This document shows, one piece after another, positions 1,371 through 17,632 of a DNA stretch of 64,000 nt (position 1 is the stretch's first letter; each line of letters begins with the position of its first letter). Origin of the DNA: an uncultured Acidobacteriota bacterium (lineage in GTDB: Bacteria; Acidobacteriota; Vicinamibacteria; Vicinamibacterales; 2-12-FULL-66-21); assembly GCA_963697775.1 (NCBI GenBank), contig CAVOPH010000003.1, positions 2,234 to 66,233 on the forward strand. The letters run 5' to 3'. The notes beneath the pieces were generated by a model, which did no database searches, was not told the origin of the DNA, and saw only the letters and a program-made list of their open reading frames with translations. A program made the translations under genes and the position numbers.

Positions 1371-1380
1371 AACGGTTCTC

Positions 1381-2130
1381 CTACTTCTTCTCCACACCGA
1401 CAATCGGGGCTGTAATCAGCGGCAGAAGCGATGCCGGCGGCGGCCCGACGACGACGACAATTTGAACGACATCGCTGCCGGCGCGCAGCGTGAGCGTGGC
1501 CACGCCATCAATCCCCGGCAGGATCTTGATCGCGGCAATCCGGCTGCCCGTCGGAACGACGACCGGTTGTTCGACCGATGCGATATTCGGATTGCTGCTG
1601 CTGACGGTTACGACAGTCGCCGACACGGCCGCGGCAGAGAGTGCCGTGACGTTCAGGTTCGGGTGACCACCCGCTCCGGTAAAGACAGTGCCCAGCCTCC
1701 GCTCTCCAGTCAGCACGACGCCGACAGGACTCGCGATGACGGGCGGTTCTGTCCCGGCTTCAGGCGTGCCGACGACGATCGTGAGCTGCCGGCTCTCACC
1801 GCCAGCCTGGAACGTCAACGTCGCCGTTCCTTGAGCACCCGTGACAATCCTCACGTTCGCGACTCGGGCGCCTGCGGCGATCGTCACCGGATCAAAGACC
1901 GCCGCGATTCCAGGATTGCTGCTGGTGACGGTGACAGCTGTAACGGCAGCCACAGGGGTGGACACGAGTTGCAACGCCAGCACAGCTTGTCCCGCAGGCG
2001 CGGTGATGACTCGCCCAGCCGACGGCGCAGCGAGGAGCACGATCCCGACTGGCTTTGCCACGGTGGGTGGCACGACTTCCGGCGGCGGCGTTCCGACGAA
2101 GATGGTCAGCTGACGCGTCGAGGGCGCCAA
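1381..2130 (-). CDS. Giant gene 1, C-terminal fragment (Big_2-like Ig repeats)
   Basis: ORF 1381..2130. Repeats VTVTSSNPGIAAV...GAQGTATLTFQAGG and VTVSSSNPNIASV...IDGVATLTLRAG. Its N-terminal sequence continues from ORF 1892..2335 in another frame. Confidence 0.7.
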   Translation of the reverse strand: MAPSTRQLTIFVGTPPPEVVPPTVAKPVGIVLLAAPSAGRVITAPAGQAVLALQLVSTPVAAVTAVTVTSSNPGIAAVFDPVTIAAGARVANVRIVTGAQGTATLTFQAGGESRQLTIVVGTPEAGTEPPVIASPVGVVLTGERRLGTVFTGAGGHPNLNVTALSAAAVSATVVTVSSSNPNIASVEQPVVVPTGSRIAAIKILPGIDGVATLTLRAGSDVVQIVVVVGPPPASLLPLITAPIVGVEKK

Positions 2131-2192
2131 CGTGGAACGTCAGAGTTGCTGTTCCTGCGGTCCCCGTGATCACCGTGATCTCGGCAGACAGC

Positions 2193-2927
2193 TCACCAGC
2201 CGCAAGGGCAATCGGTCCGTTGACCCTGGCCACGTTGGCATCGCTGCTGGTCACGGTGACGAGGGTCGGCGTCGAAGCAGGTTCGGACAGCATCTTGACC
2301 CTGAACGTCGACTGCCCCGTCGGCGCCGCGAACACGCGGCCGACCGACAGCGGATGGGAGCACCACTACGCCAACGGGTTGAGCCAGCGTCGGCGCGATT
2401 ATTCCAGCGGCAGCGTTGCCAACGACGATGGTGAGCTGACTGATCTCGCCGCCGACACGCAGCGTGAGCGTCGCCGTGCCCTGGACCCCGGTGGTGATCA
2501 CGATGTTGGCGATTCGCGAGCCCGCCGCAATCGTCACGGTCCCATTGACCGACGCGACCGCCGGGTTGGAGCTGGTGACATCGACGGTCGTCGCCACAAT
2601 CGCTGGCGCCCCCAGAATCGGAACCGCGACAGAGGTCTGACCGTTCACCGGCGTGACGACCTGACCAAGCAATCGAGCGGGGACGACGGCGATCCCCACG
2701 GGCGAGCCATCGACGCCGATGCTCTTCGCAACCACAGGGCTGACCGACGCGACGGCCCACGTAGTCCCTCGGGCCGACGTGGCCGTGATCGTGGTGGCGC
2801 CGATGGACACGCCGGTCACCGGCACCGCTACTTCGGTTTGGCCAGCCGGCAGAACGACCGATTGGGCCGAGAGCGTGGCGATGGCGGAATCAACCACCGC
2901 CAGTTGTATGACGAGATCCGTCGTCAA
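2193..2927 (-). CDS. Giant gene 1 fragment (Big_2-like Ig repeats)
   Basis: ORF 2193..2927: VDVTSSNPAVASVNGTVTIAAGSRIANIVITTGVQGTATLTLRVGG. The last roughly 40 codons are Arg-rich off-frame read-through. Confidence 0.65.
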   Translation of the reverse strand: MTTDLVIQLAVVDSAIATLSAQSVVLPAGQTEVAVPVTGVSIGATTITATSARGTTWAVASVSPVVAKSIGVDGSPVGIAVVPARLLGQVVTPVNGQTSVAVPILGAPAIVATTVDVTSSNPAVASVNGTVTIAAGSRIANIVITTGVQGTATLTLRVGGEISQLTIVVGNAAAGIIAPTLAQPVGVVVLPSAVGRPRVRGADGAVDVQGQDAVRTCFDADPRHRDQQRCQRGQGQRTDCPCGW

Positions 2928-3738
2928 CGGAGAAGTCAGCCCAAGCCGCAGATTGCCGTGTCGTCCCCAGCGGCACGCCCAGGAGACGCGGCGCCGCGCG
3001 CAGTCCTGGCACGACCTTCACGACGACCTGATCCTGTGCGACCTGCGCACCCGATGCATTCCGGCCGGTCGCTACGATCGTGAGCGTCGGCGTGGCGCTC
3101 GCGAGCCCGACGTTGAACGTCGTGGCAAACGGCGGCCCTGCGATCGGCGGCAGTGCCTGACCGTTGACGGTGAACGTCATCGTCGCGATGTTCAACGACG
3201 AGGTCGCCTTCGCCTCGAGCAACAGCGCCGAGTTCTCGAGCACTTCGCTTCCGTTCGCCGGGCTGGTGATCCCGAACGAGCCGGTCAGGAAGGTGAAGGT
3301 CAGAGGCGTGACCAGCGACTGACCTGCTGCATCTACGAGCGCATTCTCGAATCGATCCGTGATGCCAGACGTCAGCTCGACGATGACGACGGCGTCGAAC
3401 GGCAGCGGAGCGTCAGGCCCGAAGCGCACGGTGGCATCGTCATCGAGGAAGCTGAACTGTCCGGGTATCTGGAGTCCATCGATCGTCACGCGGAACGATG
3501 CAGGCGTGATGGTGGTCCGATCGACCGGCTCCGTGAAGCTGACGCGAACATCGGTTCCAACGGGAACGTTCACGGCATTGTTAGCCGGAGCGATCGCCGT
3601 CACTCGTGGTGGGACAGTGTCCGGAGACTTGGTCTTGAACACCGACGTGCGCGATGCGGACAACGCGTTACCGTGCACGTCACGGATCTGAGTTGAGCGC
3701 GTCGATTGTGTAGTTCGTATTGAGCTTGAGCGAATCAA
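2890..3738 (-). CDS. Giant gene 1 fragment (SbsA/Big_5-like plus Ig-like)
   Basis: ORF 2890..3738: DTVPPRVTAIAPANNAVNVPVGTDVRVSFTEPVDRTTITPASFRVTIDG. In-frame sense is lost near 2950 and continues in ORF 2193..2927. Confidence 0.65.
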   Translation of the reverse strand: MIRSSSIRTTQSTRSTQIRDVHGNALSASRTSVFKTKSPDTVPPRVTAIAPANNAVNVPVGTDVRVSFTEPVDRTTITPASFRVTIDGLQIPGQFSFLDDDATVRFGPDAPLPFDAVVIVELTSGITDRFENALVDAAGQSLVTPLTFTFLTGSFGITSPANGSEVLENSALLLEAKATSSLNIATMTFTVNGQALPPIAGPPFATTFNVGLASATPTLTIVATGRNASGAQVAQDQVVVKVVPGLRAAPRLLGVPLGTTRQSAAWADFSVDDGSRHTTGGG

Positions 3739-5063
3739 CCGGCGTCAGCGTCACGGTCTGATCCGCCGTCTGCGAACGCAATCGCGAACGGCACTGCGGC
3801 GCCGTTCGTGGTCAATCGGATCGACGCGGTGGTCACACTCGACCGATCGACGGCCTCCGAGAATCGCAGGACAATCTGAACATTCGGCTCGACACTCCCT
3901 GCACCCGAGGCCGGCGTCACGAGAATGACGTCCGGCGAGACAACGTCGCGGACATTCACTGTCACCGGGGCGGAGCTGGCCAGGTTTCCGGCGCCGTCGC
4001 GAGCGGTTGCAGTCAGCGTCAGCGTCCCACCAGTCGGCGGCAGCGTCGCAAATGGAACACTGAATGTTTCGATTTGCGATGTTGCCAGGCCTGCAATCGT
4101 CCTGGTTTCACTCGTCGAAGCCACACCGGCACCAGCCACTGTGACTTGCGCCAGGCCGCCGGCATCCGACGCCGCAACGGTCACGGCAAGCGGACTCCTG
4201 GGATCCACCAGCGCACCGGCCGCGGGGCTGCTGATCGCCACCTGCGGTGCGATCGTGTCGATCCCGATGTCGGCGACGCTCGTCTGACCGGCGGTCACAG
4301 TGGCAACTCTCGATCCCTGGACCGACACGCCCTGCTGGGTCGTGGTCGCTGTGAGCGTCACCGTGCTCGGTGGCAGGAGCACGAATGCATAGCTGCCGTC
4401 GCTGGCCGTCTGCTTGCTGTACTGCGCGAACCCGTTGGTGAACTGGACACCTGCCACGACGGTTGCTCCGGCAACCGGCACACCATTGAACCGGACGATG
4501 CCCCGTGCGATCCCCGTGTTGGCGAAGACGAGGTCCAGTTGCACCGCTTGCGAGCCGTCAGCGAACTGACCCGTTGATACCGCCGGGCCAAGCGCTGACA
4601 ACGTTGGATGGTCGGCGCGCACGGTGAACGGTGCGATCGGAATCACGCGCGAGTTCCCGCCTGCGGCGAGCGAAGACGTGAAGCTAAAGGTGCCATTCGC
4701 AAGGGTCGACGCCTGATAGGTCCGGCCGAACAGGACCTGATCGCTCTGGAGTTTCACGGTCACGGCACTGACGGTCGTCGTCGCGTCCGACGCGAACACG
4801 TGACCGCTGACGCTGCCAGTCAAAGGCGGCAGCGGAGCCAGCGTGCTGTTGCCGTCGGCCGGCATCGCGAAGTTTCGAACTTCCGCGAGCTCGTCCGTGC
4901 TCAGACCGGCCAGCGCTTCAGGCGACAGCTGAATCAAACGTTCGGCTGCAGCCTGTGCCGCGGGTCTCGACGTCTGCTGCACGACGAAGTGCATGAACGC
5001 CACGGTGCCGCCGGCCGGAATCGTGACGTTCTGCCACACATACGACAGGGCTCGCGGGCCCAA
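3735..5063 (-). CDS. Giant gene 1 fragment (CarboxypepD_reg-like, Ig-like, Big_5-like)
   Basis: ORF 3735..5063. Contains GIVRFNGVPVAGATVVAGVQ...QTASDGSYAFVLLPPSTVTLTA, an Ig-like AASDAGGLAQVTV segment, and VSPDVILVTPASGAGSVEPNVQIVLRFSEAVDRSSV. Confidence 0.7.
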   Translation of the reverse strand: MGPRALSYVWQNVTIPAGGTVAFMHFVVQQTSRPAAQAAAERLIQLSPEALAGLSTDELAEVRNFAMPADGNSTLAPLPPLTGSVSGHVFASDATTTVSAVTVKLQSDQVLFGRTYQASTLANGTFSFTSSLAAGGNSRVIPIAPFTVRADHPTLSALGPAVSTGQFADGSQAVQLDLVFANTGIARGIVRFNGVPVAGATVVAGVQFTNGFAQYSKQTASDGSYAFVLLPPSTVTLTATTTQQGVSVQGSRVATVTAGQTSVADIGIDTIAPQVAISSPAAGALVDPRSPLAVTVAASDAGGLAQVTVAGAGVASTSETRTIAGLATSQIETFSVPFATLPPTGGTLTLTATARDGAGNLASSAPVTVNVRDVVSPDVILVTPASGAGSVEPNVQIVLRFSEAVDRSSVTTASIRLTTNGAAVPFAIAFADGGSDRDADAG

Positions 5064-5390
5064 ATTGATGGTCGGGTCGGCTGGCGCAAACGCCGCGGAC
5101 GTTGCCTGGTTGCGTCGCGTTCAAGCCATCAAACACAAACGATGTGGCCGGCAGCCCTCCGGCGATGAACGAATCCCCGGGCGTCACGTCGTCGATCACG
5201 ACCCAGCGATCGCGCGCCGCCGGGTCGGACACATCGAGCTGACTGTCGCCGCTCGACGTCGCGATCACGGCAGGCGCAGCAGCGGAGCCACCGGCGTTGC
5301 CCTGGATGTGGCTCGTGACGCGCAGTCCCACGGTGATCGGGCGACTGGGACGGATTCGAGACGATTTCCAGGTATCGCGCGAAATAACCA

Positions 5391-6089
5391 TCAGCCGGCA
5401 CGAACACTTTGCGGGTCACGCTGACGCCGCCGACGTCGTCCTGATGAACGACGACCTCGCGGGTCTTCTCCTCGACCGTCCCGATGTTTGCTCCGGTGAA
5501 GCGGGTCGATACGCCTCCATTGATGACGTCGAGCTGCAGCGCCACCCCAGGTCTTGCCGGCATAGACACCTGTGAACACATTGCCGCTGCCATAGAGCAC
5601 CGAGCCGTCTGGCTGCAGGTCGAACGTGAAGTTGTTGGCGTCCCACTTCGAGACCGGCAGATTGATCAGGTTGCTCTGCAGCAGGATGTCGATCGTCGGC
5701 GACGAGCCGTCCTGCTGGATCGTTCCCGTGGCTTCGCCGCGCAGTTGCAGCACCGGATTCGCGACGCTGACCGTGAAGCTGCCAACCGGGATGTCCGCCG
5801 CCGAATAGAACCCGCCGGCGTTCGTCGTTGTCGCCGGGCGGAAGCCACCGAATTCGGGGTTCAGGCTGCGCACCTGCACGCCGAGGCCGCTTGCGCTCGA
5901 TCCGTCTGGATTCAACACGCGGCCGCTGACGCTTCCGAGGCCGACGAACTTCATGCTCGTCTGGGCGACCTGATTTGGCGACGCGAGCACGATCGGATCG
6001 TTGACGTGCGCACGAACGCGGTTCTGCGCGTCGTACGCGACCAGCGTGTAGCTGCCGAAGCACCAGGTTGTCGGCGCGGAACGTGCCAT
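5391..6089 (-). CDS. Giant gene 1 fragment (CarboxypepD_reg-like)
   Basis: ORF 5391..6089: GSVSGRVLNPDGSSASGLGVQVRSLNPEFGGFRPATTTNAGGFYSAADIPVGSFTVSV. Sensible sequence spans only about 5545-6060. Confidence 0.6.
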   Translation of the reverse strand: MARSAPTTWCFGSYTLVAYDAQNRVRAHVNDPIVLASPNQVAQTSMKFVGLGSVSGRVLNPDGSSASGLGVQVRSLNPEFGGFRPATTTNAGGFYSAADIPVGSFTVSVANPVLQLRGEATGTIQQDGSSPTIDILLQSNLINLPVSKWDANNFTFDLQPDGSVLYGSGNVFTGVYAGKTWGGAAARRHQWRRIDPLHRSKHRDGRGEDPRGRRSSGRRRRRQRDPQSVRAG

Positions 6090-7104
6090 CGCTGCCGATC
6101 GGCACAGTTACGCCGCTGGCTCCATTTCCGATCGAGACGGTGCCTTCCGTAACCGGCGCGTCGTTGGGCGCTCTGACAATGCCGGCGATGCTTGCAGTCG
6201 GCTGGAGGTGGACGACCACCGGCTTCTGCTCGTTCGCGGCAAGCGATCCCGTGGTGGTTCCGCTCAGAACTCCGGAGTCCGCGCGGACGCTGAAGTTTCC
6301 GACGATGACGTGATCGACCACCACGGTGCCGTTGGCGCCAGTGACCGCGAAGAGCGTATCGCTTGCGAGCCCTGCGCCCGCAGTCACCCGCACTTGCGCA
6401 TTGGCCGCGGGAGCGCCATTCGCGGTCTGCACCGTGACGACCAGCGTGCCCTGCGCGAACAAGGTCACGTCTGCGGTCTTCGTCTGACCCTGCTGATCCA
6501 GCGTGACCTGTCCGAAACCAATGCCTCGCGAGGCCGGATCGCTCACGGAAATCGTTGACGTGCCGAGCGGCAGGAACGACAGCGCATATCGTCCCTGCGC
6601 GTCGGTCACCGTGCTGATGCTTCCGAACGCCGTAACGGTTGCGCCCGAAACCGTAGTCGTCCCGTCGGCGCGATAGACCGTTCCCTGCACGGCTCCGTAG
6701 CTCGCCAACGTCACGACTTTCGTGACTGCCGGATCGCTGGCCGTGATCGATCCCGACGCCGAGGCTGCGAGGTTGGTCGAGGGATCCCTCGCCTGCACCA
6801 GGAACGTCCCGAAGAACATGTTCTGCGCGGTGAATGTACCGGTGACTGCTGTCCCGCTGACCGGCGGCGCTGCGCCAAAGATGCTGAAGCCGAGCACCGT
6901 GACCTGCGCGCCGTTGACGAGGTTGCCCGCTCCGTTCTTGACGGTGACGGTGACGCTGCCCCGACCAAGGAAAGCGACCGGCACCGAGAGGTCCTGGCCG
7001 CTCGTAGCGATCTCGGCTGCCGCCTGTCCTCGATTCCCGTTCGTGTCGCTCGACTGCGACGATGTACTTGCCGACGGCAACCAGCGGGAATTCATAGCTG
7101 CCAT
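5416..7104 (-). CDS. Giant gene 1 fragment (tandem CarboxypepD_reg-like modules)
   Basis: ORF 5416..7104. From about 7050 down to about 6060 it reads as repeated modules (GAVQGTVYRADGTTTVSGATVTAFG...TDAQGRYALSFLPLGTSTISV). Below about 6060 it becomes Arg-rich nonsense and the sense continues in ORF 5391..6089. Confidence 0.65.
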   Translation of the reverse strand: MAAMNSRWLPSASTSSQSSDTNGNRGQAAAEIATSGQDLSVPVAFLGRGSVTVTVKNGAGNLVNGAQVTVLGFSIFGAAPPVSGTAVTGTFTAQNMFFGTFLVQARDPSTNLAASASGSITASDPAVTKVVTLASYGAVQGTVYRADGTTTVSGATVTAFGSISTVTDAQGRYALSFLPLGTSTISVSDPASRGIGFGQVTLDQQGQTKTADVTLFAQGTLVVTVQTANGAPAANAQVRVTAGAGLASDTLFAVTGANGTVVVDHVIVGNFSVRADSGVLSGTTTGSLAANEQKPVVVHLQPTASIAGIVRAPNDAPVTEGTVSIGNGASGVTVPIGSDGTFRADNLVLRQLHAGRVRRAEPRSCARQRSDRARVAKSGRPDEHEVRRPRKRQRPRVESRRIERKRPRRAGAQPEPRIRWLPPGDNDERRRVLFGGGHPGWQLHGQRRESGAATARRSHGNDPAGRLVADDRHPAAEQPDQSAGLEVGRQQLHVRPAARRLGALWQRQCVHRCLCRQDLGWRCSSTSSMEAYRPASPEQTSGRSRRRPARSSFIRTTSAASA

Positions 7105-7531
7105 TCGTCGTGAACGTGGTGCTGATCGGATCGGACGGATTGGCGAGCTCGAACAGATCGACCTTCACGCCGTCGCTGGCGAGCGTGGTCCCATCGGACA
7201 GGTAGACAGGCCCGTGCAGGAATCCAGCCGCCAGGATGACGATGTCAACGTTCAGGAATCCGTTGGGACGGTTCATGAAGCCGTGGGCAAATCCAAGGAG
7301 CCGCGTCGAGTCGTCGATATCCTTCAGCACCTTCACGGTCACATCTGGACCGACCACGCCGACGACGCGGAAGCGACCTTGTGCGTCGGTATCGGTCGTC
7401 ACCGTCGTGGGACCTGAAGTCACCGTGACCTTGGCGCCAGCGGCTGGCGACAAGTTGCGGATCGAGGACGGTGCCGCTGACGATCCCGCCCTGGACGACA
7501 ACCGTCGCGCTCGCACGCTGAACTCCATCAA
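5951..7531 (-). CDS. Giant gene 1 fragment
   Basis: ORF 5951..7531. Only about 7050-7460 looks coding (AGAKVTVTSGPTTVTTDTDAQGRFRVVGVVGPDVTVKVL...GSYEFPLVAVGKYIVAVE). The remainder is an off-frame shadow of ORF 5416..7104. Confidence 0.55.
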   Translation of the reverse strand: MMEFSVRARRLSSRAGSSAAPSSIRNLSPAAGAKVTVTSGPTTVTTDTDAQGRFRVVGVVGPDVTVKVLKDIDDSTRLLGFAHGFMNRPNGFLNVDIVILAAGFLHGPVYLSDGTTLASDGVKVDLFELANPSDPISTTFTTNGSYEFPLVAVGKYIVAVERHERESRTGGSRDRYERPGPLGAGRFPWSGQRHRHRQERSGQPRQRRAGHGARLQHLWRSAAGQRDSSHRYIHRAEHVLRDVPGAGEGSLDQPRSLGVGIDHGQRSGSHESRDVGELRSRAGNGLSRRRDDYGFGRNRYGVRKHQHGDRRAGTICAVVPAARHVNDFRERSGLARHWFRTGHAGSAGSDEDRRRDLVRAGHAGRHGADREWRSRGQCASAGDCGRRARKRYALRGHWRQRHRGGRSRHRRKLQRPRGLRSSERNHHGIACRERAEAGGRPPPADCKHRRHCQSAQRRAGYGRHRLDRKWSQRRNCADRQRWHVPRRQPGASAATRWSRTTRRTAFVRTSTIRSCSRRQIRSPRRA

Positions 7532-8024
7532 TCAACGCATTGATGAACGTCGTTCCACCTGCGACACCGTTGACTGACACCGTGGCGTTCGTCTGACCAG
7601 CGGGAACGACGATGAACGGCGTTGACGTTGCGATGGTCGGGTCGGTCGTGAAGTCGATGCGCGTACCGCCGGCCGGAGCCGGCGTCGCCAGTTGGACCGC
7701 GAGCTGGGCCGTCACGCCCGCATCGACGATGACCGACGGGCCGAAGCTGACCTCCGGCAGAGCCGTGACCGTGAGGGCAAGAGTCACCGGCGCGCTCGAA
7801 TTCCCCGCGAGGTCTATTGCCGTCGCCTGAACAGTGAAGACAGTTCCTGGCACGACGTCATTGGGAACTTGAATCGCAAACGATGCGCTTGCGGTGCCGA
7901 GCGGAGGCGCGATCGGTTTCGCAGTGGTAACCGACGAACGCGCCCGATCCCTGGAGATCGATTTCAGAGACGCCGAGGTCGTCCTCAGCGTCAACGACGA
8001 TCGTGACGCTTCGGCCACGAGCAA
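7245..8024 (-). CDS. Giant gene 1 fragment (Ig-like modules)
   Basis: ORF 7245..8024. About 7455-7925 reads FTVQATAIDLAGNSSAPVTLALTV...TPFIVVPAGQTNATVSVNGVAGGTTFINA. Confidence 0.6.
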   Translation of the reverse strand: MLVAEASRSSLTLRTTSASLKSISRDRARSSVTTAKPIAPPLGTASASFAIQVPNDVVPGTVFTVQATAIDLAGNSSAPVTLALTVTALPEVSFGPSVIVDAGVTAQLAVQLATPAPAGGTRIDFTTDPTIATSTPFIVVPAGQTNATVSVNGVAGGTTFINALIDGVQRASATVVVQGGIVSGTVLDPQLVASRWRQGHGDFRSHDGDDRYRRTRSLPRRRRGRSRCDREGAEGYRRLDAAPWICPRLHEPSQRIPER

Positions 8025-8776
8025 TGTCCAGCCGTCCGGTGTCGGTGTGGAGCGCGGTCACCGTCGGTGCGCACGTTGTCGGCGACCGGAAGGATGACGC
8101 GAGCGGCAGCACCGACGTTGCCGGCGCGATCCTCGGCGGTGGCGTCGAGGATCAAGCTCTGTGGCGGCTTCGCGCCTGCAGGCACTTGAACGGTAAACGA
8201 CGTCACGATGGACGGCTGCGCCGGATCGATGAGCCGAGTCTGGGTCGAGACCACGACGCCGGTCGCCTTGAACGTCAGCGAGCGGACGCTGCCGGCATCC
8301 TGGACCGAGACCACGACCGTGGTCTGCTGTCCGGCGCGCACCTGCGTGCCTGACGTCGCGCCGGTGATCTTCACGGTCGGAGCAACCGAATCGCGCACCG
8401 TCACCGTCACCGGTGCCGCGTCGACCAGCTGTCCCTTCGTGTCGACGACGGATGCCTGAACGGCGATGGTGGATCCGGGCGTAGCGTCGACGGGTACGAC
8501 AAATCCGAAGGCTTCCGACCGGTTCTTTGCCGGCGGCGCCACGGCTCGAGTGGCGGCATCGACCGGCTTGCCGGTCAGCGCCTTGAAGCTGACCTTCTCG
8601 ATGCCAACATCGTCGGTCGCGACGACCGTGACGTCGACGTGCTCGCCATTGCCTGCTACGAGGCTGGCGGCAGGAATCTGGATGGTCGCAACCGGCGGCA
8701 CATCGAGCAGGATTGGCACGAATGCGGTGATGGGTGGCCCACGGACGCCGGACGTATCGGTCGCGATGGCGGACAC
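7991..8776 (-). CDS. Giant gene 1 fragment (Ig-like modules with D-D-x-G-I/V motif)
   Basis: ORF 7991..8776: VVATDDVGIEKVSFKALTGKP...VQASVVDTKGQLVDAAPVTVTVRDSVAPTVKITG...SVQDAGSVRSLTFKATG. Confidence 0.65.
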   Translation of the reverse strand: MSAIATDTSGVRGPPITAFVPILLDVPPVATIQIPAASLVAGNGEHVDVTVVATDDVGIEKVSFKALTGKPVDAATRAVAPPAKNRSEAFGFVVPVDATPGSTIAVQASVVDTKGQLVDAAPVTVTVRDSVAPTVKITGATSGTQVRAGQQTTVVVSVQDAGSVRSLTFKATGVVVSTQTRLIDPAQPSIVTSFTVQVPAGAKPPQSLILDATAEDRAGNVGAAARVILPVADNVRTDGDRAPHRHRTAGHCSWPKRHDRR

Positions 8777-9083
8777 TTTGATCTGGTCGCCCGGCTTGCC
8801 GAGGAGGGCGCCAGCCTGGAAGCTGAAGACGTAGGGCGCCGCGCACCGTCGCAGAAAACACGTCGTTCAGGAAGAAATCGACAAACGCCACATCGAACGC
8901 TCCGACCGTTGCGGTCGCGCTCGTGACCGTGTTCTCGATGACGCTGCCGTTGCCGGCAACAGTCAGCTGCACGATCGACGGCGGGGTTCCGTTGGTGGTC
9001 GTGAACGAGTAGTCGAGCCCGGCTCCTTGAGCGTTGCCCGAGAGATCGACAGCCGCCGGTGCCACTAACGTGATAGCTGACAC
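8058..9083 (-). CDS. Giant gene 1 fragment
   Basis: ORF 8058..9083. Only about 8830-9070 is sensible (AITLVAPAAVDLSGNAQGAGLDYSFTTTNGTPPSIVQLTVAGNGSVIENTV). The rest is an Arg-rich shadow of ORF 7991..8776. Confidence 0.5.
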   Translation of the reverse strand: MSAITLVAPAAVDLSGNAQGAGLDYSFTTTNGTPPSIVQLTVAGNGSVIENTVTSATATVGAFDVAFVDFFLNDVFSATVRGALRLQLPGWRPPRQAGRPDQSVRHRDRYVRRPWATHHRIRANPARCAAGCDHPDSCRQPRSRQWRARRRHGRRDRRCWHREGQLQGADRQAGRCRHSSRGAAGKEPVGSLRICRTRRRYARIHHRRSGIRRRHEGTAGRRGTGDGDGARFGCSDREDHRRDVRHAGARRTADHGRGLGPGCRQRPLADVQGDRRRGLDPDSAHRSGAAVHRDVVYRSSACRREAATELDPRRHRRGSRRQRRCCRSRHPSGRRQRAHRR

Positions 9084-12000
9084 CCGGCGCCAGCGGCAGG
9101 TTGGGCGTAAACACCGCGACGGTGTTGTCGAAGAGGAAATCGAGCCGCCCAGGCACGAGTCCGCTCGGACGACGTCAGCGTCAAGGCGGCGGGCCTCTGA
9201 ACTTTGCCGGATCGATCGGTTCGTTGAACACGATCCGAATCGGGCTGAAGACGCTCACGCCAATGGTCGCCGGCAGCTGGACTCGTCTCGACGGTCGCCG
9301 GCGCGATGGTGTCAGCCGTCGTGAAGCTGCTGACGAACTCCGATCGCATCGGGTGGCCGACACGATCCTGAAGCGACTTGACCCGGATCGAATACTTCGT
9401 CTGTTCTGCGAGCGGGGCAAGCGGCCTGAAGGTCACCGTTTTGTCGCCGTTCGACTGCACGACGTCGCCTGCGATCGAGCCCGACGCGTCCGAGAGGACA
9501 ACGTTGGCTGCTATTCACGGTCGCCGGAGTGACCGGCTCGGACATGACGATCTGGATCGTCGTCGTCTTCAGGACGTTCGTGGCGGATGCCGCTGGAGTG
9601 ACCGTGCCGACAGCGGGAGCTGCCGCGTCGAGTGTGAGGTCGCCGAGATCGGCGATGCCTGCCAGCGGTGCCGACCTTGCTCGCTACGCCAGTCCCGATT
9701 GGATCCTGCAAGAGCCAGCACGTAACTGCCAAGCGGCAGGGTATCGAAATTGAACGTGCCGTCGCTTCCGGTTTCAGTAAAGAAGTGTTTGCCATTCACT
9801 ACGATTTCAGCCGTAACACCGCCGGCGCCGGCACCAGTGCTCTCGAGAACCGCACGGCCCTTCAGGGTGCCGGTTGGTTCGAGCACGATGACGACGATCC
9901 TTTGATCTCGCCGGGGTTAAGCCGGTCGCTGACGACACCCTTCGTCGTGAAGGACGGCGCGGCAGCCGCGGTAATCGTGAACGACCGTGCCGAGACGTCG
10001 GGGAATGAGAACTGACCGTTCGCGTCGGCGAAACCCTGCCGCTGAACGGCTGGAATGCCGAGGAGCGACACGCGCGCGCCCGGAGTGGGAGCGCCGTTGG
10101 AGCAGGACGACTCCCGTCAACTGGCTGATGCCGGCGAGCACGACCTGTACGTTTGCGGCGTCGCCGTCGAACTCGATCGAGGCGGTCGCGGATCCCGATC
10201 TCGACGCCGGTCTGCGGCGTCGCCACGACGAGCATACGGCCAAGCGGCAGGTGATCGAGGTGAAGGTCCCGTCAGCGGCCGCGGTCACGATCAACGAGCC
10301 CGGCTCGCACGTGCTCACACAAACCTTCGCATTGCCGGCCGGCGCGCCGTTCGCGTACGAGACAGACGCCCTCGATACTTCCGAACGACGGCCGCAGAAC
10401 GTTGACCGTCAGCGGAATGTCCACCACCTGGCCGGGCTGGGTGATCTCGTCCTTGCGCCTCGCCTCGACCCTGGACATCCGTTTTCGACGCCCTCACGTT
10501 GAACGATGCCGACCGCCGCACCGGGGAACGAGAAGCTGCCATCGACGCCGCTGGTGCGTTGTCATTCCGATCGACCGGCCGGACGGGTGGTCTGGCTGAA
10601 GGAGACCCGCCAGCCCTTGAGCGGCGTGAGCGATGCCGGCCTCGACGACTCGCCCGGTCACGACCGCGAGCGCGTCTTCGGTGACGTTCACCGGCACGCT
10701 TCTGTCCGGCCAGGAAGATCTCGTCCGCTCGCCGCGCCGTGGCCTGCGTTGGCGCCTCGAACGCGTCGATCGTGAACGGACCGAGCGGAATCAGATCCTG
10801 CGTGTAGTTGCCGGCGCCGTCGGTCACGTTGAATCCGATCGCGCCGTCGCCGTTGCTGATCACCACTGACGCGTTCGCCGCGGGCGAGCCGTCGGACCGC
10901 CGCACGCACACCGTGCACCGATCCGGTGGCGGTGGCGAGGTAGACGTTCAGCGTCACCGTCTCGCCGTCGTTGACGATCTTGCCCGATGCCGACGCCGGC
11001 GAACCCGTTCTGCTGCGTCCCGGTCGCCGTGACGACAAACGGTGCCTGCGCTGAACGCGTCGCCGCCGGTGAACCGCGCCACACCGACGCTCGTCGCCGC
11101 TCTGGCCGCTGAAGAGCACCACGCTCTCGATTCGGGTAATCGATCTGCTTGACCTGGACCTGGCGCCAGGAATCAGCGTGTGCGCATCGCTGGCGAACAC
11201 CTTCACGATCAGGTCGGCGATGCCCGGCAGCTTGATCGAGCACGTCGGCCTTCTCGCCGGCTCGGACGGACCCACGCAGCCGCGCGGTGCGGCCGGTGAA
11301 GTCGGCGTTCTCGAACGCGGTGAGCGTGTAGTTGCCGGCGTTCACGACGGCAAACAGGAACGTGCCGGTCGCGTCGGTGACGGCCATCGCTTCCTGGATG
11401 CCCTGCGGAATCGTCGTGCACGACATCTCGCCGATCGACGACTTCCGACGCAGAACGTCTTGAACTCGTCCGACTTGTATTTGACGATCACGCCCTCGCC
11501 GACCGGCGTGCCGTCTGGATTCAGGATCCTGGCCGGTGACCTGGCTCGTCGGCTGCAGCTTCAGCGTCAGGTCCAGCGTGGTGGTCGGCGCCGGCATCGT
11601 CGCCTCGAGGGCGATCGGATCGGGGCTGAACTGGCCGGCGGCCCTGAGCGTGAACGAGCCCGGCCCAGAGCCACGTCATCGCAGAAGGCGCCGGTGGCTG
11701 AAGTCGGTGTCGACGATCTTGAAGTTCTGGACGTACTGGAAATCGACGCCGACGCGGCCGCCGGCGACGACGACCTGATCGCCGGAGAGGCTGACCCGCG
11801 CCTTGATCGGCGTGTTGCTCGCGTCGACCACCGTGCCGGTCACGCCGCCGCCGCCGCCGCCGCGGAACGTGACGTCGGCCTTGACGGTCTGGCTGTTGAA
11901 CTTGACGTCGACGTACGACGAGGTTGCCGTCGCTGAAGTCGCGCTTGAAGGCCGTCAACCGGTAGTTGCCGACCGGAATGGCGGGCATCTGATAGTGACC

Positions 12001-14424
12001 GTTCGTCGTCGGAGATGGCCTGGCCGACGATTTCGATCTGCCTTGCTCGATCGGCAGCTTGTAGAGGTAGACGGCGATGCCCGGCACCGGCGTCACGCCG
12101 TCGACGCAGGAACAGGGTGCCGGCCACGCTGCCGACCGACTCGAGCACGATCGTGGCGGAGACTTCCTCGCCCGACCCGCGTGATGTCGACGGTGACGCG
12201 GCCGCTCGATGCCCAGCGCGTCGCTCACGGCGACGATCTCGCGGCGGCCGAGCGGCACGTCGGGCAGCGTGAAGTGGCCCGTCGCGTCCGTCGTCACCAG
12301 GCTCAGCCCGCCGCCGACGCGCGCGCCCGCAACGCCGGTGCCGGCGGCATCCAGCACGACGCCTTTGACGTGCCGAGGCCGCCGGAGATCACGATGTTGA
12401 CGTTGCCGGTGGCGTCGGCTGCCAGGATCAGGCTGGCCTCACCTTCCTGCAGCGTGCCTGATCGAAGGTCGTCACGCGCAAGCTGGCCCGCCGGCACGCC
12501 GGGGAACGAAACGCGCCGTCTGCATCGGTCGTGCCGAGGGCGATCGCGCATCTCCTCCGGGGATGCCCGGACAGCCGACTCCCGGCTGGCTTCCGCCGGT
12601 GTAGTAGACGACGATCGGCAGGCCGGCGAGGGAGCCAGGCCGTGCTTCGCAGCACGTGACCGGTCACCGTGCCCCGTCTTGACGACGATGGCTTTCGGAC
12701 TGTCGGCCTTCAGCAGCACGAAGTCGCGTGACGTCGTCGCGCCGGCGAACGGAATGTTCTCGCTGATCGACATCTGCGCGTTCGCCGTGGGATTCACCGC
12801 CTCGATGAAGATGTTGCCGACCGGCACGCGTGCGATGGTGAAGCGGCCGTCGGCGTCGTGGTCGCACCGTACTCGCTCTGGTCGGTCAGGCTGGTGATCC
12901 GGATCGCGGTGTCCTTCGAGCGGCGTGCCGCTTCGCCGAGCGTCCGGCCCTGCAGCGTGCCGCGGCCCAGCAACACGATGTCGACGTTCAGCCGCTGGCC
13001 GTTGCGCTGCGACGTTGAACCGCAGATCGCGGAACTCGTCGGTCTCGGGGTCGACCGCGAGGATGCGACGGCGCTGCGCAGCACGTAGTCCCACGAGTAC
13101 TTGCCGTCTGCGTCGGCGCTCTTCGAGCTGATGCCGACCCAGTGGATCTCGCCGACCGCAGCCGGGCATGGTAGAACAGCCGCACGCTCGCGAACGGAAC
13201 CGGCGAGCCCTCGGCGCGCAGCACGCGGCCGGACACGACGCCGCGCGACGTCGTCGACGGTGATTTCGATCGGCGACGTCTGCGCGCCCATCGACTGGCC
13301 GCGCAGGTCGGCGACGTCCTGAATCGTGATCGTGCGCGGCACGAACGGACCGATCGGATCGCGCAGCGCGAGGAACGCGATGCGCCCGCCCGGCTGCAGC
13401 GCCACGCCGACGACCGCGTTGCCGTCCAGCGAGTAGTGGGTGATGTCCTCGGCCGTGAACTTGTCCTGCACGCTCTGCGCGGTGACCTCTTCGCTGAACA
13501 GCACCGCGACGATGCGGCCGGCGCCCAGAGCCCGGTCGTCTTGCCGGCGTCAACGCACACCTGATCCGCCTGAACCTGCTGCACGACGCCGATGACGGAC
13601 GGGGCCGGATCGACCACCGCGAACGACGACCGGTCGCCACGCGATCGCGCCGGCGACGCCAGTCTCGACCGACAGCGCGATACGGATCCGCTGGAGCAAA
13701 TGGCAGCGCCGGGAGCCTGCGCCGGATCGACGTTCTGGAAGACGAACTGCCGCAGTGCCCTGCGCGTCGGGGACGACGACGCTGAGCGTGAACGGCAGCG
13801 GTGACATCCGGCAACGCGATCGAGCCGGATCGTGAAAGTGCCCGGATCCGGCGCCGCGATCATCGCCAACTGCGCAGTCGGCAACGGCGCTGCCGCGCCA
13901 AACGGCAGGTAGTCGCCGAACGGAATCTCCTTGATGATCTTGCCGTGCGAGCACTGCCGCCGAGCGCTGCGTCCGCTCCGTCGACGAGGGTCAGCGTCAC
14001 TCGGCAGTGGACCCGGCGCCGACGAGCAGAACCGAGATGTATGCCGGCCGGTACGAGATCTTCTCCGCGAGGTCGTGATGGAACGCGGCCGCGCCCGGCA
14101 CTGGCGAGATCGGGCTGCATCAGCGCGGCCACGGCCTGCGCGAACACGTCGCCGCGCGACGAGCGTGCGGCGCAGCTCGTCGAAGCCGGCGAAGTCGGTC
14201 CTGGCGAAGTCGAGGTCGTCCGGGTTCGTGATGCGGTCCGGGAGCCGCGCGTAGTTGCTGCCGATGAAGTCCATCGCCAGCTGCGACGCGCTGTCGCGCA
14301 GCGGCTCGTGCAGGGTGACGCGCAGGCCGGCCTCGGCGACCTCGATGGCGCGATCCCAGATCAGCTTCTTCGAGAAGCGCTGCACGTCCGTCGGCAGCGG
14401 CGGCCGCGGAGCGGTCGCCACCGC

Positions 14425-14907
14425 CTAGGCCTTGCCGAGCAGGCCGATCGCCGCAGTTCGCAGATCGATCGGCAGCGTCCCCGCTTCCTTCGGCAGCACC
14501 AGCGAGTCGGGCGACAGCGGCACGCCCAGCTCGCCGACCGCGGTCTTCAGTGCGAACCGGCCGGTGACGTTCTCGTCGGAGTCGAGCGTCGCGGCGGTCA
14601 CTTTGCCGCTGACCTTCGCGATGAGATCGAAGCTGACCGATCGCGAGTCGCCGGGCGCAATGGTCTCGATCTGGCGGGTCGGATCGCCGACGATCGTCGC
14701 GCCGCTGACGACTCGTGGATACAGATTCAGGCTGACGAAGTTCGCCGGCGAGGGGCTGGTGTTGGTGACGGTGACGTCGAGCGTGTACGGCTCGCCCGCC
14801 GTCACGACCTCTGGATGCGTGAAGGTCAGCGTGAACGTCGGGTTGCGCACCAGCACCGCGCCGGCGGCGCGGCCGCGCACCGTCACCGGGACCGATCGGC
14901 AGCCCAT
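14425..14907 (-). CDS. Giant gene 1 fragment (CARDB-like module), ends at TAG 14425-14427
   Basis: ORF 14425..14907: TFTHPEVVTAGEPYTLDVTVTNTSPSPANFVSLNLYPRVVSGATIVGDPTRQIETIAPGDSRSVSFDLIAKVSGKV. Confidence 0.65.
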   Translation of the reverse strand: MGCRSVPVTVRGRAAGAVLVRNPTFTLTFTHPEVVTAGEPYTLDVTVTNTSPSPANFVSLNLYPRVVSGATIVGDPTRQIETIAPGDSRSVSFDLIAKVSGKVTAATLDSDENVTGRFALKTAVGELGVPLSPDSLVLPKEAGTLPIDLRTAAIGLLGKA

Positions 14908-15605
14908 TCAGCGTGCCGGCAATCTCCATCTCGACGACGTGGCTGCCTTCGCGGCGGCCTTCGACCAGGAACTCCGCGTTGCCGGTCTCGCCTGGACCGA
15001 TTCCGTTGACATCGTCCGCCGTGCCGAGCTTGCCGTCCGGCCCCGGCTGCACGACCGGCTGGATGCGCGGCACTTCTCCCTGCGCCGTCCGCCCCATGCG
15101 CAAGCGGATCGTCGGGAGATCCGACCACGGTGTCTGCGCCGGGCGGCAGCACGATCTCGGCCTGCAGATCGGTGACGACCAGGTTCGAGCCGGCCGGCGC
15201 GACGTTGCCGACCATCAGCATCACGCTGAAGAACTGGTTGAGGAAGCCGATGTCGCCGGGAATGACGATGACGCCGGGAATCGGCGGCACGAAGAAGTTC
15301 TGCCCCGCCAGCTCCGGCATCTTCAGCGTGAAGCCCACGACGTTGAGGTTCGGAATCTGCGTCTGGATCCGCTTCAGCGTGTCGGGAATGATCGTTTGAA
15401 GGCTCGGCAGCCCGGCTGTGACCGATACCGGGCAGATCGACCTGCTGTTCCCGGCGTCCTCCGCGCCCTGAAGCGTGGGCAGGACGACGGTGAAATTGAT
15501 CGGGACGGTCTTGCCCTCGATCGCGAACGCCGCGGCGAAGTTGTAGGCCTGGAAGTTCGACTTGTCGAAGACGATTCCCTTCTCGCGGATTTCGGCCGCG
15601 GTCAA
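14883..15605 (-). CDS. Giant gene 1 fragment (N-terminal region, no family recognised)
   Basis: ORF 14883..15605. About 15100-15605 reads TAAEIREKGIVFDKSNFQAYNFAAAFAIEGKTVPINFTVVLPTLQ...NLVVTDLQAEIVLPPGADTVVGSPDDPL. Confidence 0.6.
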   Translation of the reverse strand: MTAAEIREKGIVFDKSNFQAYNFAAAFAIEGKTVPINFTVVLPTLQGAEDAGNSRSICPVSVTAGLPSLQTIIPDTLKRIQTQIPNLNVVGFTLKMPELAGQNFFVPPIPGVIVIPGDIGFLNQFFSVMLMVGNVAPAGSNLVVTDLQAEIVLPPGADTVVGSPDDPLAHGADGAGRSAAHPAGRAAGAGRQARHGGRCQRNRSRRDRQRGVPGRRPPRRQPRRRDGDCRHAEWAADRSR

Positions 15606-16080
15606 GCGGCCGCGCGGTCACCTGGGTGACGAGCAGTCGATCGATGACGTCGATGACGACACTTTCGGGCGTGCCGCGCAGAACGACTTCGCCGTTGCTG
15701 ATCAGCCGGATGTTGTCGAGCGTGTGCTTGCCGGCGACGGTCAGCGGCGGAATGTTGAACGGCGTGTTCGGCTTGACCGTCAGCTCGATCGGCGTCGGGA
15801 ACGTCGGGCCGCGCAGCGTGGCTTTGACGACCGCGTCGGGCGCGAACGGCGGCAGGTTCCCGGGCGTCTGCGGCGCGACGAAGATCGTGCTGACGATCGT
15901 CGCGATGTCCTTCGGGACGGTCTGCTGCGCCGGCTCGACCTTGAGGCCGAGGCCGAAGAGGATGATGTCGTCCTTCGCGAGGAAGCGATCCTTCTGCTGC
16001 GCAGACACGTGCGTCGTCCCGATGCTGGCGACGCCAAGCATCAGAGCGATCCACACGATCCGCACGCGAAGTGTTCTCAC
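14908..16080 (-). CDS. Giant gene 1, N-terminal fragment with signal peptide
   Basis: ORF 14908..16080. GTG start at 16080 with AAGGA 6 nt upstream. Signal-like MRTLRVRIVWIALMLGVASIGTTHVSAQQ. Sensible only to about 15600, after which it becomes Arg-rich. Confidence 0.65.
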   Translation of the reverse strand: MRTLRVRIVWIALMLGVASIGTTHVSAQQKDRFLAKDDIILFGLGLKVEPAQQTVPKDIATIVSTIFVAPQTPGNLPPFAPDAVVKATLRGPTFPTPIELTVKPNTPFNIPPLTVAGKHTLDNIRLISNGEVVLRGTPESVVIDVIDRLLVTQVTARPLDRGRNPREGNRLRQVELPGLQLRRGVRDRGQDRPDQFHRRPAHASGRGGRREQQVDLPGIGHSRAAEPSNDHSRHAEADPDADSEPQRRGLHAEDAGAGGAELLRAADSRRHRHSRRHRLPQPVLQRDADGRQRRAGRLEPGRHRSAGRDRAAARRRHRGRISRRSACAWGGRRREKCRASSRSCSRGRTASSARRTMSTESVQARPATRSSWSKAAAKAATSSRWRLPAR

Positions 16081-16088
16081 GCTAGTCC

Positions 16089-16874
16089 TTATGGCAAGTG
16101 ACAGTCGGCTTCGGTTCGCTGAAGCAGGTCGATCCGTATGCCGAATCTCACGGCGCTCTCACTGCTCACACGTACGGCGTAGTCGCCGTCTTCAAGGAAC
16201 TTGATCAACTTGGTTTGGAACGTGGAGTTTGCGCTGACGTCGCGCAGGTTCAGTTCGACCGTCAGAAAGCCCGTCTGCAGGCTTGTCGCTTGAACTACGT
16301 AGCATCCGCGCGACGGCGCGTGGAACCTGAAGAGCGTTCGGTTCAACAGCTTGTTGCCGCCGTCAGTGGTGAGTGATCGGTCCGAACAGATCCCGGGTCT
16401 GCAACGGCACGCCACTGAAGAAATCGCTGGCATCGGTCTCCTCTGTATGCCCGATTGGGAGAACGGTGTACAGGGACTGGCCCGTCGCCGAGTACCGTCG
16501 CCGGCACCGATGTTCTCTCCGGCGGCTAAAGTGTCAATGTCTGTCGCAGCCGCTGCATTCGCACTCTTTAGCGCCTTCAGGAAACTGAAGATGCTGGTAA
16601 AGGCCGGAGTGTTTCGCGTCGCGACAAGGGCGTCATAAATGGGACGGAAACCGAGCGCGACGTGATCCGGCGTCGCCGTTCCGTCGCTGTTCAAGTCGTT
16701 AGGATCGATGCCATCGAAGAGGTCATAGATGACCTCGCTGACGGACGCTTCCGAGTAGAAGCCGTCGGAAAGGAAGGTCGACCCCGGTATCGGCCGCAAG
16801 TGATCATCCGTGTGATCGACCTCCACGTCTGTACCAAGACCCTCCCCCCTGATGAGCGCCAGCGGTATCGACAT
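16089..16874 (-). CDS. Giant gene 2, C-terminal fragment (PPC-like terminal domain)
   Basis: ORF 16089..16874. The end reads LFRFHAPSRGCYVVQATSLQTGFLTVELNLRDVSANSTFQTKLIKFLEDGDYAVRVSS. The stretch at about 16385-16495 reads better in another frame (YSATGQSLYTVLPIGHTEETDASDFFSGVPLQTRDLFGPITH), suggesting two compensating breaks. Confidence 0.55.
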   Translation of the reverse strand: MSIPLALIRGEGLGTDVEVDHTDDHLRPIPGSTFLSDGFYSEASVSEVIYDLFDGIDPNDLNSDGTATPDHVALGFRPIYDALVATRNTPAFTSIFSFLKALKSANAAAATDIDTLAAGENIGAGDGTRRRASPCTPFSQSGIQRRPMPAISSVACRCRPGICSDRSLTTDGGNKLLNRTLFRFHAPSRGCYVVQATSLQTGFLTVELNLRDVSANSTFQTKLIKFLEDGDYAVRVSSESAVRFGIRIDLLQRTEADCHLP

Positions 16875-17632
16875 ACAAAGGATCCTTGCCCAGCCACTTC
16901 AGGACGATTCCGGCAAATGCGGTTGCGAATCCTTCGCTAAAGGCCGCCGCGGGATCCAGAATGTCTCCGTCTTCGTGCGTGCTACCGGGCGAATCGCTCC
17001 GGCTGATAACGGCATGGAGATAGTGCGCCCACTCGTGCAGAATGACGCCGTCGTCGTATTCGTCGGTGTCGTGATCCTCTGACCCGTTGAGCAGGATGCT
17101 CCCGGTGTTCGTCCCGGTGACCCTGGAATAGGCGGTGTCACCGAGATTGTTGGCAGGGCTCCAGTAGACGATGAGCGGCGGCAAGGTGATGTTGCCGACG
17201 CTCGCCCGCACGAACTTCTCGGCATCGTGAATCGTGTCGATGATTGCAAACGGCGCAGCTTCCCGTGTGCCCGAGTAGCGCCTCGCGCTGTTGTCCCAGC
17301 CAGATTGAAGTGTGATGTCTTTGGTAACGGGCGACGCACCCAGCGGCACACTGACGCGGGCGGTGTAGACGTAGCAAAGGAGATCCGTCGCGGGGCACGC
17401 AGTGGGCGCTGTGTTGTAAACCGCAACGTGCGGCTGCTTCGGATCTCCCAGCGCAGCCTTGACGGCTATCGTGACGACGGAATTGTGAGGCGCTACGAAC
17501 GAGTAGTAACCGCCATCAGTCGTGTTCGTCCTCTCGATGACATTGTCGGCCGCATCTCTCAACTCGACGACGACCCCGCGGGCTGGGAGCTGCTTTTCAT
17601 CGTCGTAGGTCAACCCCACGGTCCGATCGGCC
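16804..17632 (-). CDS. Giant gene 2 fragment: gluzincin-type zinc metallopeptidase domain
   Basis: Frame of ORF 16804..17907. HEWAH is at 17023-17037 and SEGFATAF about 30 residues downstream (about 16921-16935). There is no start codon or signal peptide of its own after the stop at 17633. The sequence continues from ...GVIKYHV of the upstream fragment if one base is removed. Confidence 0.6.

Follow-up and report, generated by a model that had tools for sequence, protein, structure and literature searches.

Pseudogenisation commonly strikes large surface-protein genes. The 64,000-nt stretch of DNA analysed here (the window) comes from the metagenome-assembled genome (MAG; assembly G000) of a soil member of the Vicinamibacterales (Acidobacteriota) and holds a giant gene whose product can be followed only by hopping between reading frames. 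The locus raises the question whether this gene is decaying in the organism or was broken in the assembly. A previous reading of the letters by themselves (the sequence-only reading) had offered three explanations: a decaying pseudogene, uncorrected consensus errors, and collapsed strain variation. The evidence favours the second, and we put the probability at about 0.9 that the shattering reflects consensus errors of the assembly and that gene decay is not the cause. This judgement draws together the indel spectrum, the intact selective constraint, the intact orthologs, the breaks across the genome, a control of the detector, and a patch of indels that crosses a gene boundary.

A giant secreted protein and its homologs

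It had been claimed that one protein can be traced by frame hopping from a GTG at 16080 to a stop at 1381, and this stands: by GC3 tracking, the coding frame of the minus strand changes ∼50 times from one point to the other, and 92 frameshifting indels were assigned to G000. When these indels are read through, guided by the alignment to the ortholog in the relative G015, the frame is open from start to stop and the gene measures ∼14,649 nt (4,882 codons, one of them a nonsense codon). The proposed start, signal peptide and stop are consistent with the homologs, whose consensus start coincides with that of the giant gene. In the AF2 model of one homolog (P0002), residues 10-27 form an N-terminal helix and beta domains come after it. 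The C-terminal 2,324 aa of the read-through align end to end with an intact ORF of the genome G013 at 64% identity, and the N-terminal 967 aa match Vicinamibacterales MAG proteins with 99-100% coverage and 65-67% identity. The gene is real and almost certainly functional, with ∼4,882 codons for a secreted giant protein of beta-sandwich repeats.

Pfam matches in the giant protein are CARDB, at least five CarboxypepD_reg, SpaA-like, Big_5 and Big_7. The predicted protein starts with a signal peptide, is very poor in cysteine and contains beta-sandwich domains by the dozen; in these respects it resembles the giant bacterial multi-beta-sandwich surface proteins built from CarboxypepD_reg (transthyretin-like), Big_5 (SbsA-like Ig) and Big_7 repeats. 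The N-terminal module (∼970 aa) had no sequence match in Pfam, NCBIfam or the PDB. In Foldseek searches with this module, A2ML1, C3, CD109 and TEP1 were among the best matches (E-values 4.5e-9 to ∼1e-5), with TM-scores of at most 0.12; generic multi-Ig proteins score alike. The likeness to MG-domain proteins of the A2M and complement type is looser, and the giant protein differs from them in that its helical domain has only ∼140 residues and in that the CxEQ thioester motif is absent from the G000 and G015 read-throughs, as from P0002 and P0003. An alpha-2-macroglobulin identity of the module was set aside because of TM-scores of 0.1 or less and the missing motif. The giant protein belongs to an uncharacterised, widespread family of secreted proteins in which the N-terminal module is conserved. 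Its gene is clustered with those of PKD-repeat, PEP-CTERM and other Big_5 proteins.

Table 1. Features of the locus, in window coordinates.
Feature	Position	Strand	Remarks
Giant secreted beta-sandwich-repeat protein gene	1381..16080	(-)	14,700 nt as assembled
GTG start and Sec-type signal peptide	15994..16080	(-)	Translation; inferred cleavage site between MRTLRVRIVWIALMLGVASIGTTHVSA and QQ
Dense patch of probable errors	9065..15604	.	79 G000 indels (one of 2 bp, the others of 1 bp); 11.9/kb
Sparser part of the giant gene	1381..9064	.	13-15 G000 indels, ∼1.7/kb
Sole G000-specific in-frame stop from a substitution	14425..14427	(-)	TAG vs TAT (Tyr) in G015
Upstream neighbour, large Big_5-containing protein with HEWAH motif	16089..21934	(-)	Pfam Big_5 in 17633..21934
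Downstream Gly-rich gene, 457 aa, intact	30..1403	(-)	ORF

Frameshifts within the gene

The closest relative used as alignment reference was G015, with 87% nucleotide identity. Alignment of the two orthologs revealed 109 indel events inside the giant gene, and the 92 assigned to G000 comprise 69 insertions and 23 deletions. All but two of the 92 are of 1 bp, and the two largest are of 2 bp. The G000 sites are not common to G015. Indel density drops ∼7-fold within the gene near 9.0 kb. The indels of the dense patch are Poisson-spaced (CV 0.99; KS p 0.8 vs exponential), and the 5-kb bin that holds this stretch ranks highest of 1,082 bins in a frame-switch scan of the genome. Breaks at such a density greatly exceed what chance would give. 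The mean spacing of the 79 indels, 84 nt or ∼28 codons, fits the short frame segments that had been noticed between 9.2 and 15.6 kb. In the sparser part the density is still ∼4 times the genome average, and 12 frame changes separate it from the intact G013 ORF over 8368..1384. Where 15 breaks had been traced between 2.1 and 9.2 kb, we counted 16-17, made up of 13 G000 indels below 9.0 kb and 3-4 between 9.0 and 9.2 kb.

Sequence context was scored within an uninterrupted 2,008-aa ORF of G015, which covers most of the dense stretch (window ∼15400-9370) and takes in 55 insertions and 25 deletions. The inserted bases mirror base composition (C 19, G 18, A 9, T 9), and the insertions are spread uniformly over the codon phases (20/20/15). 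Homopolymer slippage was rejected, since few events match a neighbouring base (9 of the 55 insertions, 10 of the 25 deletions). Methylation-motif basecalling errors were rejected as well: a GATC-like context had been noticed, but no 4-mer was enriched at the indel sites (256 tests; best p 9e-4). Events of 1 bp that strike at random positions, whatever the codon phase, form a spectrum of technical error. Against this reading, the excess of insertions outside homopolymers departs from the residual errors classically left in polished nanopore assemblies.

The stop created by substitution falls on codon 315 of the alignment to the G015 ORF (codon 551 of the read-through) and terminates ORF 14425..14907. 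An apparent ‘shared stop’ at codon 3548 was traced, by tblastn with the G013 ORF, to the mis-assignment of two close indels (window 5538 and 5338).

Orthologs, neighbours and the wider genome

Comparison with relatives, which the sequence-only reading had proposed, turned up intact orthologs. The G015 frame is open over most of the dense patch, with a few breaks of its own elsewhere; in G013, 2,325 aa are open. All 14 loci checked on metagenome contigs (58-87% amino-acid identity) are open for 730-2,870 codons, each up to the end of the fetched DNA, and 11 of the 14 for at least 2,100 codons across the region. The closest sequences found were G015 and metagenome contigs with 87% amino-acid identity, and none is from the same strain.

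The neighbours of the giant gene had been described as intact, which holds only in part. The downstream Gly-rich gene is unbroken: one HSP, with 69% identity and no frame change, covers its alignment to a G013 ORF (L012_-4127_447), and it adjoins the giant gene in G013 too. Its product has no match to a Pfam or NCBIfam family. Within the window, 19.9-64 kb is otherwise clean as well, with about one frameshift-like break, at 48098. The upstream neighbour, on the other hand, is broken in its 3' third at ∼17.6, 16.84 and 16.4-16.5 kb. An open G015 frame matches it by tblastn in pieces lying in frames -1, -2, -3 and -2, and the HMM places frame switches at 16493 and 16862. The probable error patch therefore reaches past the giant gene and ignores gene boundaries. 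Elsewhere in the window, two PKD ORFs (21627..25127 and 24977..26677) overlap suspiciously.

The G000 assembly consists of 17 contigs and has a completeness of 67%. A codon-usage Viterbi scan detected ∼2,400 frameshift-like switches in it. Their counts per 5 kb are over-dispersed (variance 8.6 around a mean of 2.2), and they define 135 patches amounting to 28% of the genome, with 1.34 switches per kb inside and 0.08 per kb elsewhere. The damage had been framed as peculiar to the giant gene, which is wrong; it is most likely one patch of a genome-wide artefact. Among 39 conserved genes tested, 14 are broken (24 frame changes in 51 kb). Other patches shatter COX1, dapB together with dapA, and the gene of an FGGY kinase; the short-read MAGs G013 and G016 both have an intact COX1. 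The same scan, run as a control of the detector, gave 0.44 switches per kb in G000, 0.19 in contig C12 of G015, 0.017 in G013, and no break in 115 kb of metagenome contigs that carry orthologous giant genes.

Several local causes of the patches were weighed. The consensus-error explanation had come with two subsidiary ideas, that polishing had repaired conserved genes and that repetitiveness had shielded errors in the giant gene. The first gets no support, COX1, dapA and dapB being shattered. The second fares no better: there are no strong internal DNA repeats in the giant gene, only weak ones (60-74%, 30-50 nt), the clearest of which sit in the sparse C-terminal part, and internal repeats as an obstacle to short-read polishing were accordingly rejected. 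The patch over the giant gene falls within the initial 20 kb of contig C3, yet bins near contig ends are not enriched for switches genome-wide, and a general contig-end effect was also rejected. Breaks correlate with GC content to varying degrees (rho 0.38 in the HMM scan, 0.61 within the gene, 0.06 for an alignment-based count outside the gene), and part of this signal may reflect detector power.

Origin of the frameshifts

Indel errors in long-read assemblies were reportedly described by Watson and Warr (2019, Nat Biotechnol) as truncating predicted proteins. The shattering is most likely not a real biological feature, and we picture its origin as follows. The assembly is highly contiguous but probably rich in errors, as expected of a long-read or hybrid draft, with uncorrected one-base consensus indels remaining in patches of ∼7-11 kb. 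One such patch (window ∼2.1-17.6 kb, densest at 9.07-15.6 kb) would span the giant gene and run into the 3' end of the gene upstream of it, and every spurious base would shift the frame, leaving the protein traceable only by frame hopping. The patch itself may stem from a local failure of polishing or from low effective depth, and the reads would be expected not to back the indels. That such errors truncate predicted proteins in long-read or hybrid (meta)genome assemblies has been documented (proovframe preprint, 10.1101/2021.08.23.457338; Polypolish, PMC8812927; Sereika et al., PMC9262707). G000 resembles these cases in being highly contiguous with low marker-gene completeness, in its thousands of ORF-splitting 1-bp indels, in the apparent survival of errors through polishing in some regions, and in having intact short-read orthologs. 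It differs in that the errors are mostly insertions outside homopolymers and are strongly patchy, 28% of the genome carrying most of them.

Collapsed strain variation would mean that reads of several co-existing strains, differing in this variable surface gene, were merged in a single consensus, or that polishing failed because the short reads belonged to a different strain. It is itself a sub-type of artefact, distinct only as to what directly caused the patch. The gene family does break short-read assemblies, most database homologs being labelled ‘partial’ and the G013 contig ending inside the gene, and synonymous divergence of G000 from G015 peaks in the dense patch (dS 0.376, against 0.215-0.258 over the remainder of the gene). 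With indels removed, however, substitutions fall at codon positions 1, 2 and 3 in the numbers 157/104/477, 65% of them at position 3, whereas the insertions are not tied to third positions. Because their phase is uniform, the indels do not resemble SNP alleles that the consensus recorded one after the other. The plain Poisson spacing and the patches in highly conserved housekeeping genes (COX1, dapA, dapB) also argue against strain variation as the local cause of the poor consensus, which we consider unlikely.

Decay of a giant adhesin gene through the accumulation of ∼92 frameshifts has precedents of a kind. The shdA, ratB and sivH genes of Salmonella Typhi exemplify the giant adhesin or surface-protein pseudogenes of host-restricted bacteria, and here too a very large surface gene is interrupted while many neighbours are intact; the breaks are present in the deposited sequence, and the nonsense codon at 14425 looks real. 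True pseudogenes, however, carry few and mixed lesions (nonsense codons, larger deletions, IS elements, homopolymer slips) and show relaxed constraint. The giant gene combines ∼92 one-base indels with one nonsense codon, has no deletion above 2 bp, no deletion bias and few homopolymer slips, and its 3:1 ratio of insertions to deletions, with homopolymers avoided, is the reverse of natural bacterial indel spectra. Selective constraint on the gene is preserved. Between G000 and G015, dN/dS amounts to 0.158 for the dense patch, with values of 0.08-0.25 over other parts of the gene. In the shattered part, 15-28 amino-acid changes are specific to G000 and 31-69 to G015, so the G000 lineage has no excess of amino-acid change in this gene. 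Like damage in essential genes, spread over 135 patches, and a patch that ignores gene boundaries further count against decay, and a true pseudogene is very unlikely.

It is more improbable still that the indels are real, which would require a living Vicinamibacterales population in which 28% of the genome, the giant surface gene and essential genes included, had been hit by random one-base insertions in showers of kilobase scale; if true, this would imply a hitherto unknown localised indel-mutagenic process or a way to tolerate such indels. Programmed frameshifting, or local indel showers from an error-prone polymerase, by which the locus would be expressed or diversified in spite of its breaks, can practically be dismissed, given the lack of slippery or repeated motifs at the indel sites, the lack of shared sites in the 87%-identical relative, the same pattern in unrelated housekeeping genes, and a number of sites (∼92 in one gene) far beyond any programmed frameshifting known to us.

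Consensus errors as the preferred reading have consequences for the use of this genome. G000 is a species representative, yet about one third of its genes would be split by spurious frameshifts, and whoever takes pseudogene calls, gene counts, completeness estimates or protein-family surveys from it should probably expect mistakes in the patches. The same caution extends to the similar, highly contiguous, low-completeness relatives G002, G014 and G012, and less so to G015. Given accurate sequence, the giant-protein family may deserve a study of its own; its N-terminal module is also found in proteins labelled Verrucomicrobiota, Myxococcota and Chloroflexota.

Frame breaks in the giant gene

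The giant gene on the minus strand, from a GTG at 16080 to a stop at 1381, had been described in a sequence-only reading as one that can be followed only by hopping between frames. This observation is real, since the best coding phase changes ~50 times along the gene by GC3 tracking, the ORF list consists of overlapping minus-strand pieces with translations resembling genuine protein, and the pieces have Pfam matches to Big_5, Big_7, CarboxypepD_reg, and CARDB. With a probability of about 0.9, the shattering comes from consensus indels that were left uncorrected over one patch of an error-rich, long-read-type draft. Both the long-read platform and what made the errors patchy are inferred here; candidate causes would be polishing that failed locally, low effective depth, or strain heterogeneity. 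Drafts broken by indels, with some regions hard to polish, are a described class of artefact (10.1101/2021.08.23.457338, PMC8812927, PMC9262707).

In the closest relative, a genome of the same genus (G015), the ortholog is collinear with that of the genome under study (G000), a single 18-kb blastn HSP (87.4% identity, 155 gaps) spanning window positions 9-17996. Its open pieces are far longer than those in G000, and a 2,008-aa ORF extends over most of the part that is most broken up in G000. When indels were assigned by dynamic programming along the entire gene, 109 events separated the two genomes; 92 were placed in G000 (69 insertions and 23 deletions, 1 bp each except two of 2 bp) and about 16 in G015, where four are compensating pairs. 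When its own indels are bridged, G000 reads through 4,882 codons from start to stop, and a TAG at 14425-14427 (TAT in G015) is the sole in-frame stop specific to it. Another stop, at codon 3548 and seemingly common to both genomes, was rejected as a product of indel assignment.

Within the 2,008-aa ORF, G000 carries 57 insertions and 25 deletions, of exactly 1 bp in 80 of 82 cases. The inserted bases (C19, G18, A9, T9) fit base composition, only 9 of 55 single-base insertions are identical to an adjacent base, and insertions after codon positions 1, 2, and 3 occur as 20:20:15. The 79 G000 indels at 9065-15604 (11.9 per kb) are exponentially spaced (CV 0.99, KS p = 0.8), and the remainder of the gene has 1.7 per kb, a step of about 7-fold within one gene. 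Neither an enriched 4-mer at the G000 indel sites nor strong internal DNA repeats were found in the giant gene.

Intact orthologs, which the sequence-only reading had proposed to look for, were found in relatives. The short-read MAG G013 holds an unbroken 2,325-aa frame that leaves the contig at its end and aligns end to end, at 64% identity, with the C-terminal half of the G000 read-through; against it, G000 has 12 frame changes and G015 has 4, at positions differing from those of G000. A scan of metagenome contigs gave 25 related loci, and in all 14 that were checked (58-87% amino-acid identity) the frame that starts at the N-terminus stays unbroken as far as the fetched DNA extends. Eleven of these are open for 2,100-2,870 codons, enough to span the entire region shattered in G000. 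Relative to the G013 frame, indels of G000 (+1) and G015 (-1) lie within a few bases of one site at ~5338; this is probably a coincidence, as about 0.9 such pairs are expected from the event densities.

True decay, in which the giant gene would have drifted for long enough to gather about 90 frameshifts, is not supported by the evidence seen: relaxed constraint and a deletion bias would be expected, along with several nonsense codons and larger deletions, and none was observed. With indels taken out, substitutions between G000 and G015 number 157, 104, and 477 at codon positions 1, 2, and 3. dN/dS is 0.249 in the first 160 codons, 0.158 in the dense patch, and 0.081 and 0.166 in two sparse segments. 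A relative-rate test of the two genomes with three outgroup homologs gave 15-28 lineage-specific amino-acid changes for G000 and 31-69 for G015 in the shattered part, and balanced numbers (14 vs 11 and 35 vs 28) in the C-terminal half.

Frame breaks across the genome

The G000 assembly comprises 5.46 Mb in 17 contigs, with about 65% G+C and a marker-gene completeness of just 67%; the window corresponds to positions 2234-66233 of its contig C3. When the entire genome was scanned with a codon-usage Viterbi model, 2,947 frame switches on the same strand were detected, and about 2,400 lie >30 nt from the stop of the old frame. With this detector, also run on other sequences as a control, frameshift-like breaks per kb amounted to 0.44 in G000, 0.19 in contig C12 of G015, 0.017 in 117 kb of G013, and 0 in 115 kb of metagenome contigs with orthologous giant genes. 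Comparison by tblastn with 39 G013 ORFs gave 24 frame changes per 51 kb of aligned coding sequence (0.47 per kb), with 14 of the 39 orthologs broken in G000.

Breaks are strongly over-dispersed among the 1,082 bins of 5 kb (mean 2.17, variance 8.6; no breaks in 453). The highest count, 15, belongs to the bin of the giant gene, and about 40 bins hold at least 10. Two-state Poisson segmentation delimited 135 'dirty' patches (median 7 kb, maximum 76 kb) that make up 28% of the genome and contain 1.34 detected breaks per kb, vs 0.08 elsewhere. Enrichment at contig ends was not general in these bins, and the association with GC was modest, part of which may reflect detector power.

Other patches hit COX1 (4 breaks across the last 271 residues), dapB and dapA (5 breaks), and an FGGY kinase (4 breaks), all confirmed by Pfam. 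In G013 and G016, both short-read MAGs, COX1 is an intact ORF of 543-555 aa; G000 has it in 5 or more pieces, and G015 has it broken twice. The giant gene had been taken as a special case, and this view did not hold up: the same breaks occur genome-wide, housekeeping genes included. From these sequence patterns, its shattering is very probably an assembly artefact and not a gene-specific phenomenon, and its value is as a warning on data quality.

Three further same-genus species representatives (G002, G012, and G014) resemble G000 in having few contigs (3-60) and low completeness (57-70%), and frameshift-laden drafts may be common among reference genomes of this genus. An intergenic stretch of G000 (contig C7, 759031-759210; locus L036, 1031-1210) contains an array of GGTTCGC-type heptamers together with a palindromic element, GC-rich and about 105 nt long. 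By blastn, the stretch has 155 HSPs in G000 and many others in G015. It is no tRNA and matches nothing in Rfam; it may represent a dispersed repeat, REP- or MITE-like, in this genus.

Extent of the patch and neighbouring genes

The neighbours had been called intact, which nearly holds for 19.9-64 kb, where about one frameshift-like break (at 48098) was detected, but not for the adjoining upstream gene. There, an open G015 frame passes through G000 frames -1, -2, -3, and -2, switching near 17.6, 16.84, and 16.4-16.5 kb, and the alignment of the two genomes is very gappy at 16.09-17.64 kb. Since the upstream gene is broken too, the error patch ignores gene boundaries, running from about 2.1 to 17.6 kb. 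Over 150 kb of synteny between contig C3 of G000 and C12 of G015, most bins have 0-6 frameshifting differences per 2 kb, and C3:10-18 kb has 11-25. At 18.9-21.8 kb (G015 C12, about 141-145 kb), G015 is itself dense in indels, with at least 8 additional single bases across the stretch (18892-21764) in which a 1,433-aa ORF of G000 is open. G015 thus has an error patch of its own, placed elsewhere, and this suggests that it is also an indel-prone draft.

Neighbours of the giant gene in the window
Feature	Position	Strand	Description
Upstream neighbour	16089-21934	-	Apparently one gene, about 1,950 aa; Big_5 domains, HEWAH metalloprotease-like motif
PKD-repeat ORFs (two)	21627..25127 and 24977..26677	-	150-nt overlap
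PEP-CTERM protein	26638..27234	-	Adjoins large surface-protein genes
TPR-CHAT protein	27656..30655	-	Adjoins large surface-protein genes

An extra G is present at 25064 in G000 relative to G015. The two PKD-repeat ORFs may belong to one protein of about 1,680 aa that a further spurious insertion has cut in two. Products of the neighbouring genes are Big_5, PKD-repeat, PEP-CTERM, and CHAT-TPR proteins. With its PEP-CTERM and TPR-CHAT genes beside those of the large surface proteins, the stretch at 26638-30655 resembles a surface-protein island for which an exosortase may be needed.

The encoded protein

The giant protein begins with a Sec-type signal peptide, followed by a conserved ~970-aa module (about 13200-16080); searches of Pfam, NCBIfam, and PDB sequences matched the module only through one CARDB-like domain. 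Homologs of the module comprise 101 database proteins, the closest being Vicinamibacterales MAG proteins (65-67% identity); others carry the labels Verrucomicrobiota, Myxococcota, and Chloroflexota. E169, E379, E435, N445, and N452 are among its invariant residues, and H386 and H427 come close to invariance. An AF2 model of the homolog P0002 (pLDDT 81) has beta-sandwich domains, a ~140-residue helical bundle, and more beta-sandwiches. A2ML1, C3, CD109, and TEP1 are among its top Foldseek matches, but with TM-scores of 0.1 or less, and no CxEQ motif was found in the giant protein; the alpha-2-macroglobulin/complement-like match may serve as a lead, not as membership. The remainder is made up of CarboxypepD_reg, SpaA-like, Big_5, and Big_7 repeats and, toward the C-terminus, four repeats of about 108 aa. 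By domain content alone, the product is likely a cell-surface or extracellular protein with a structural or adhesive role.
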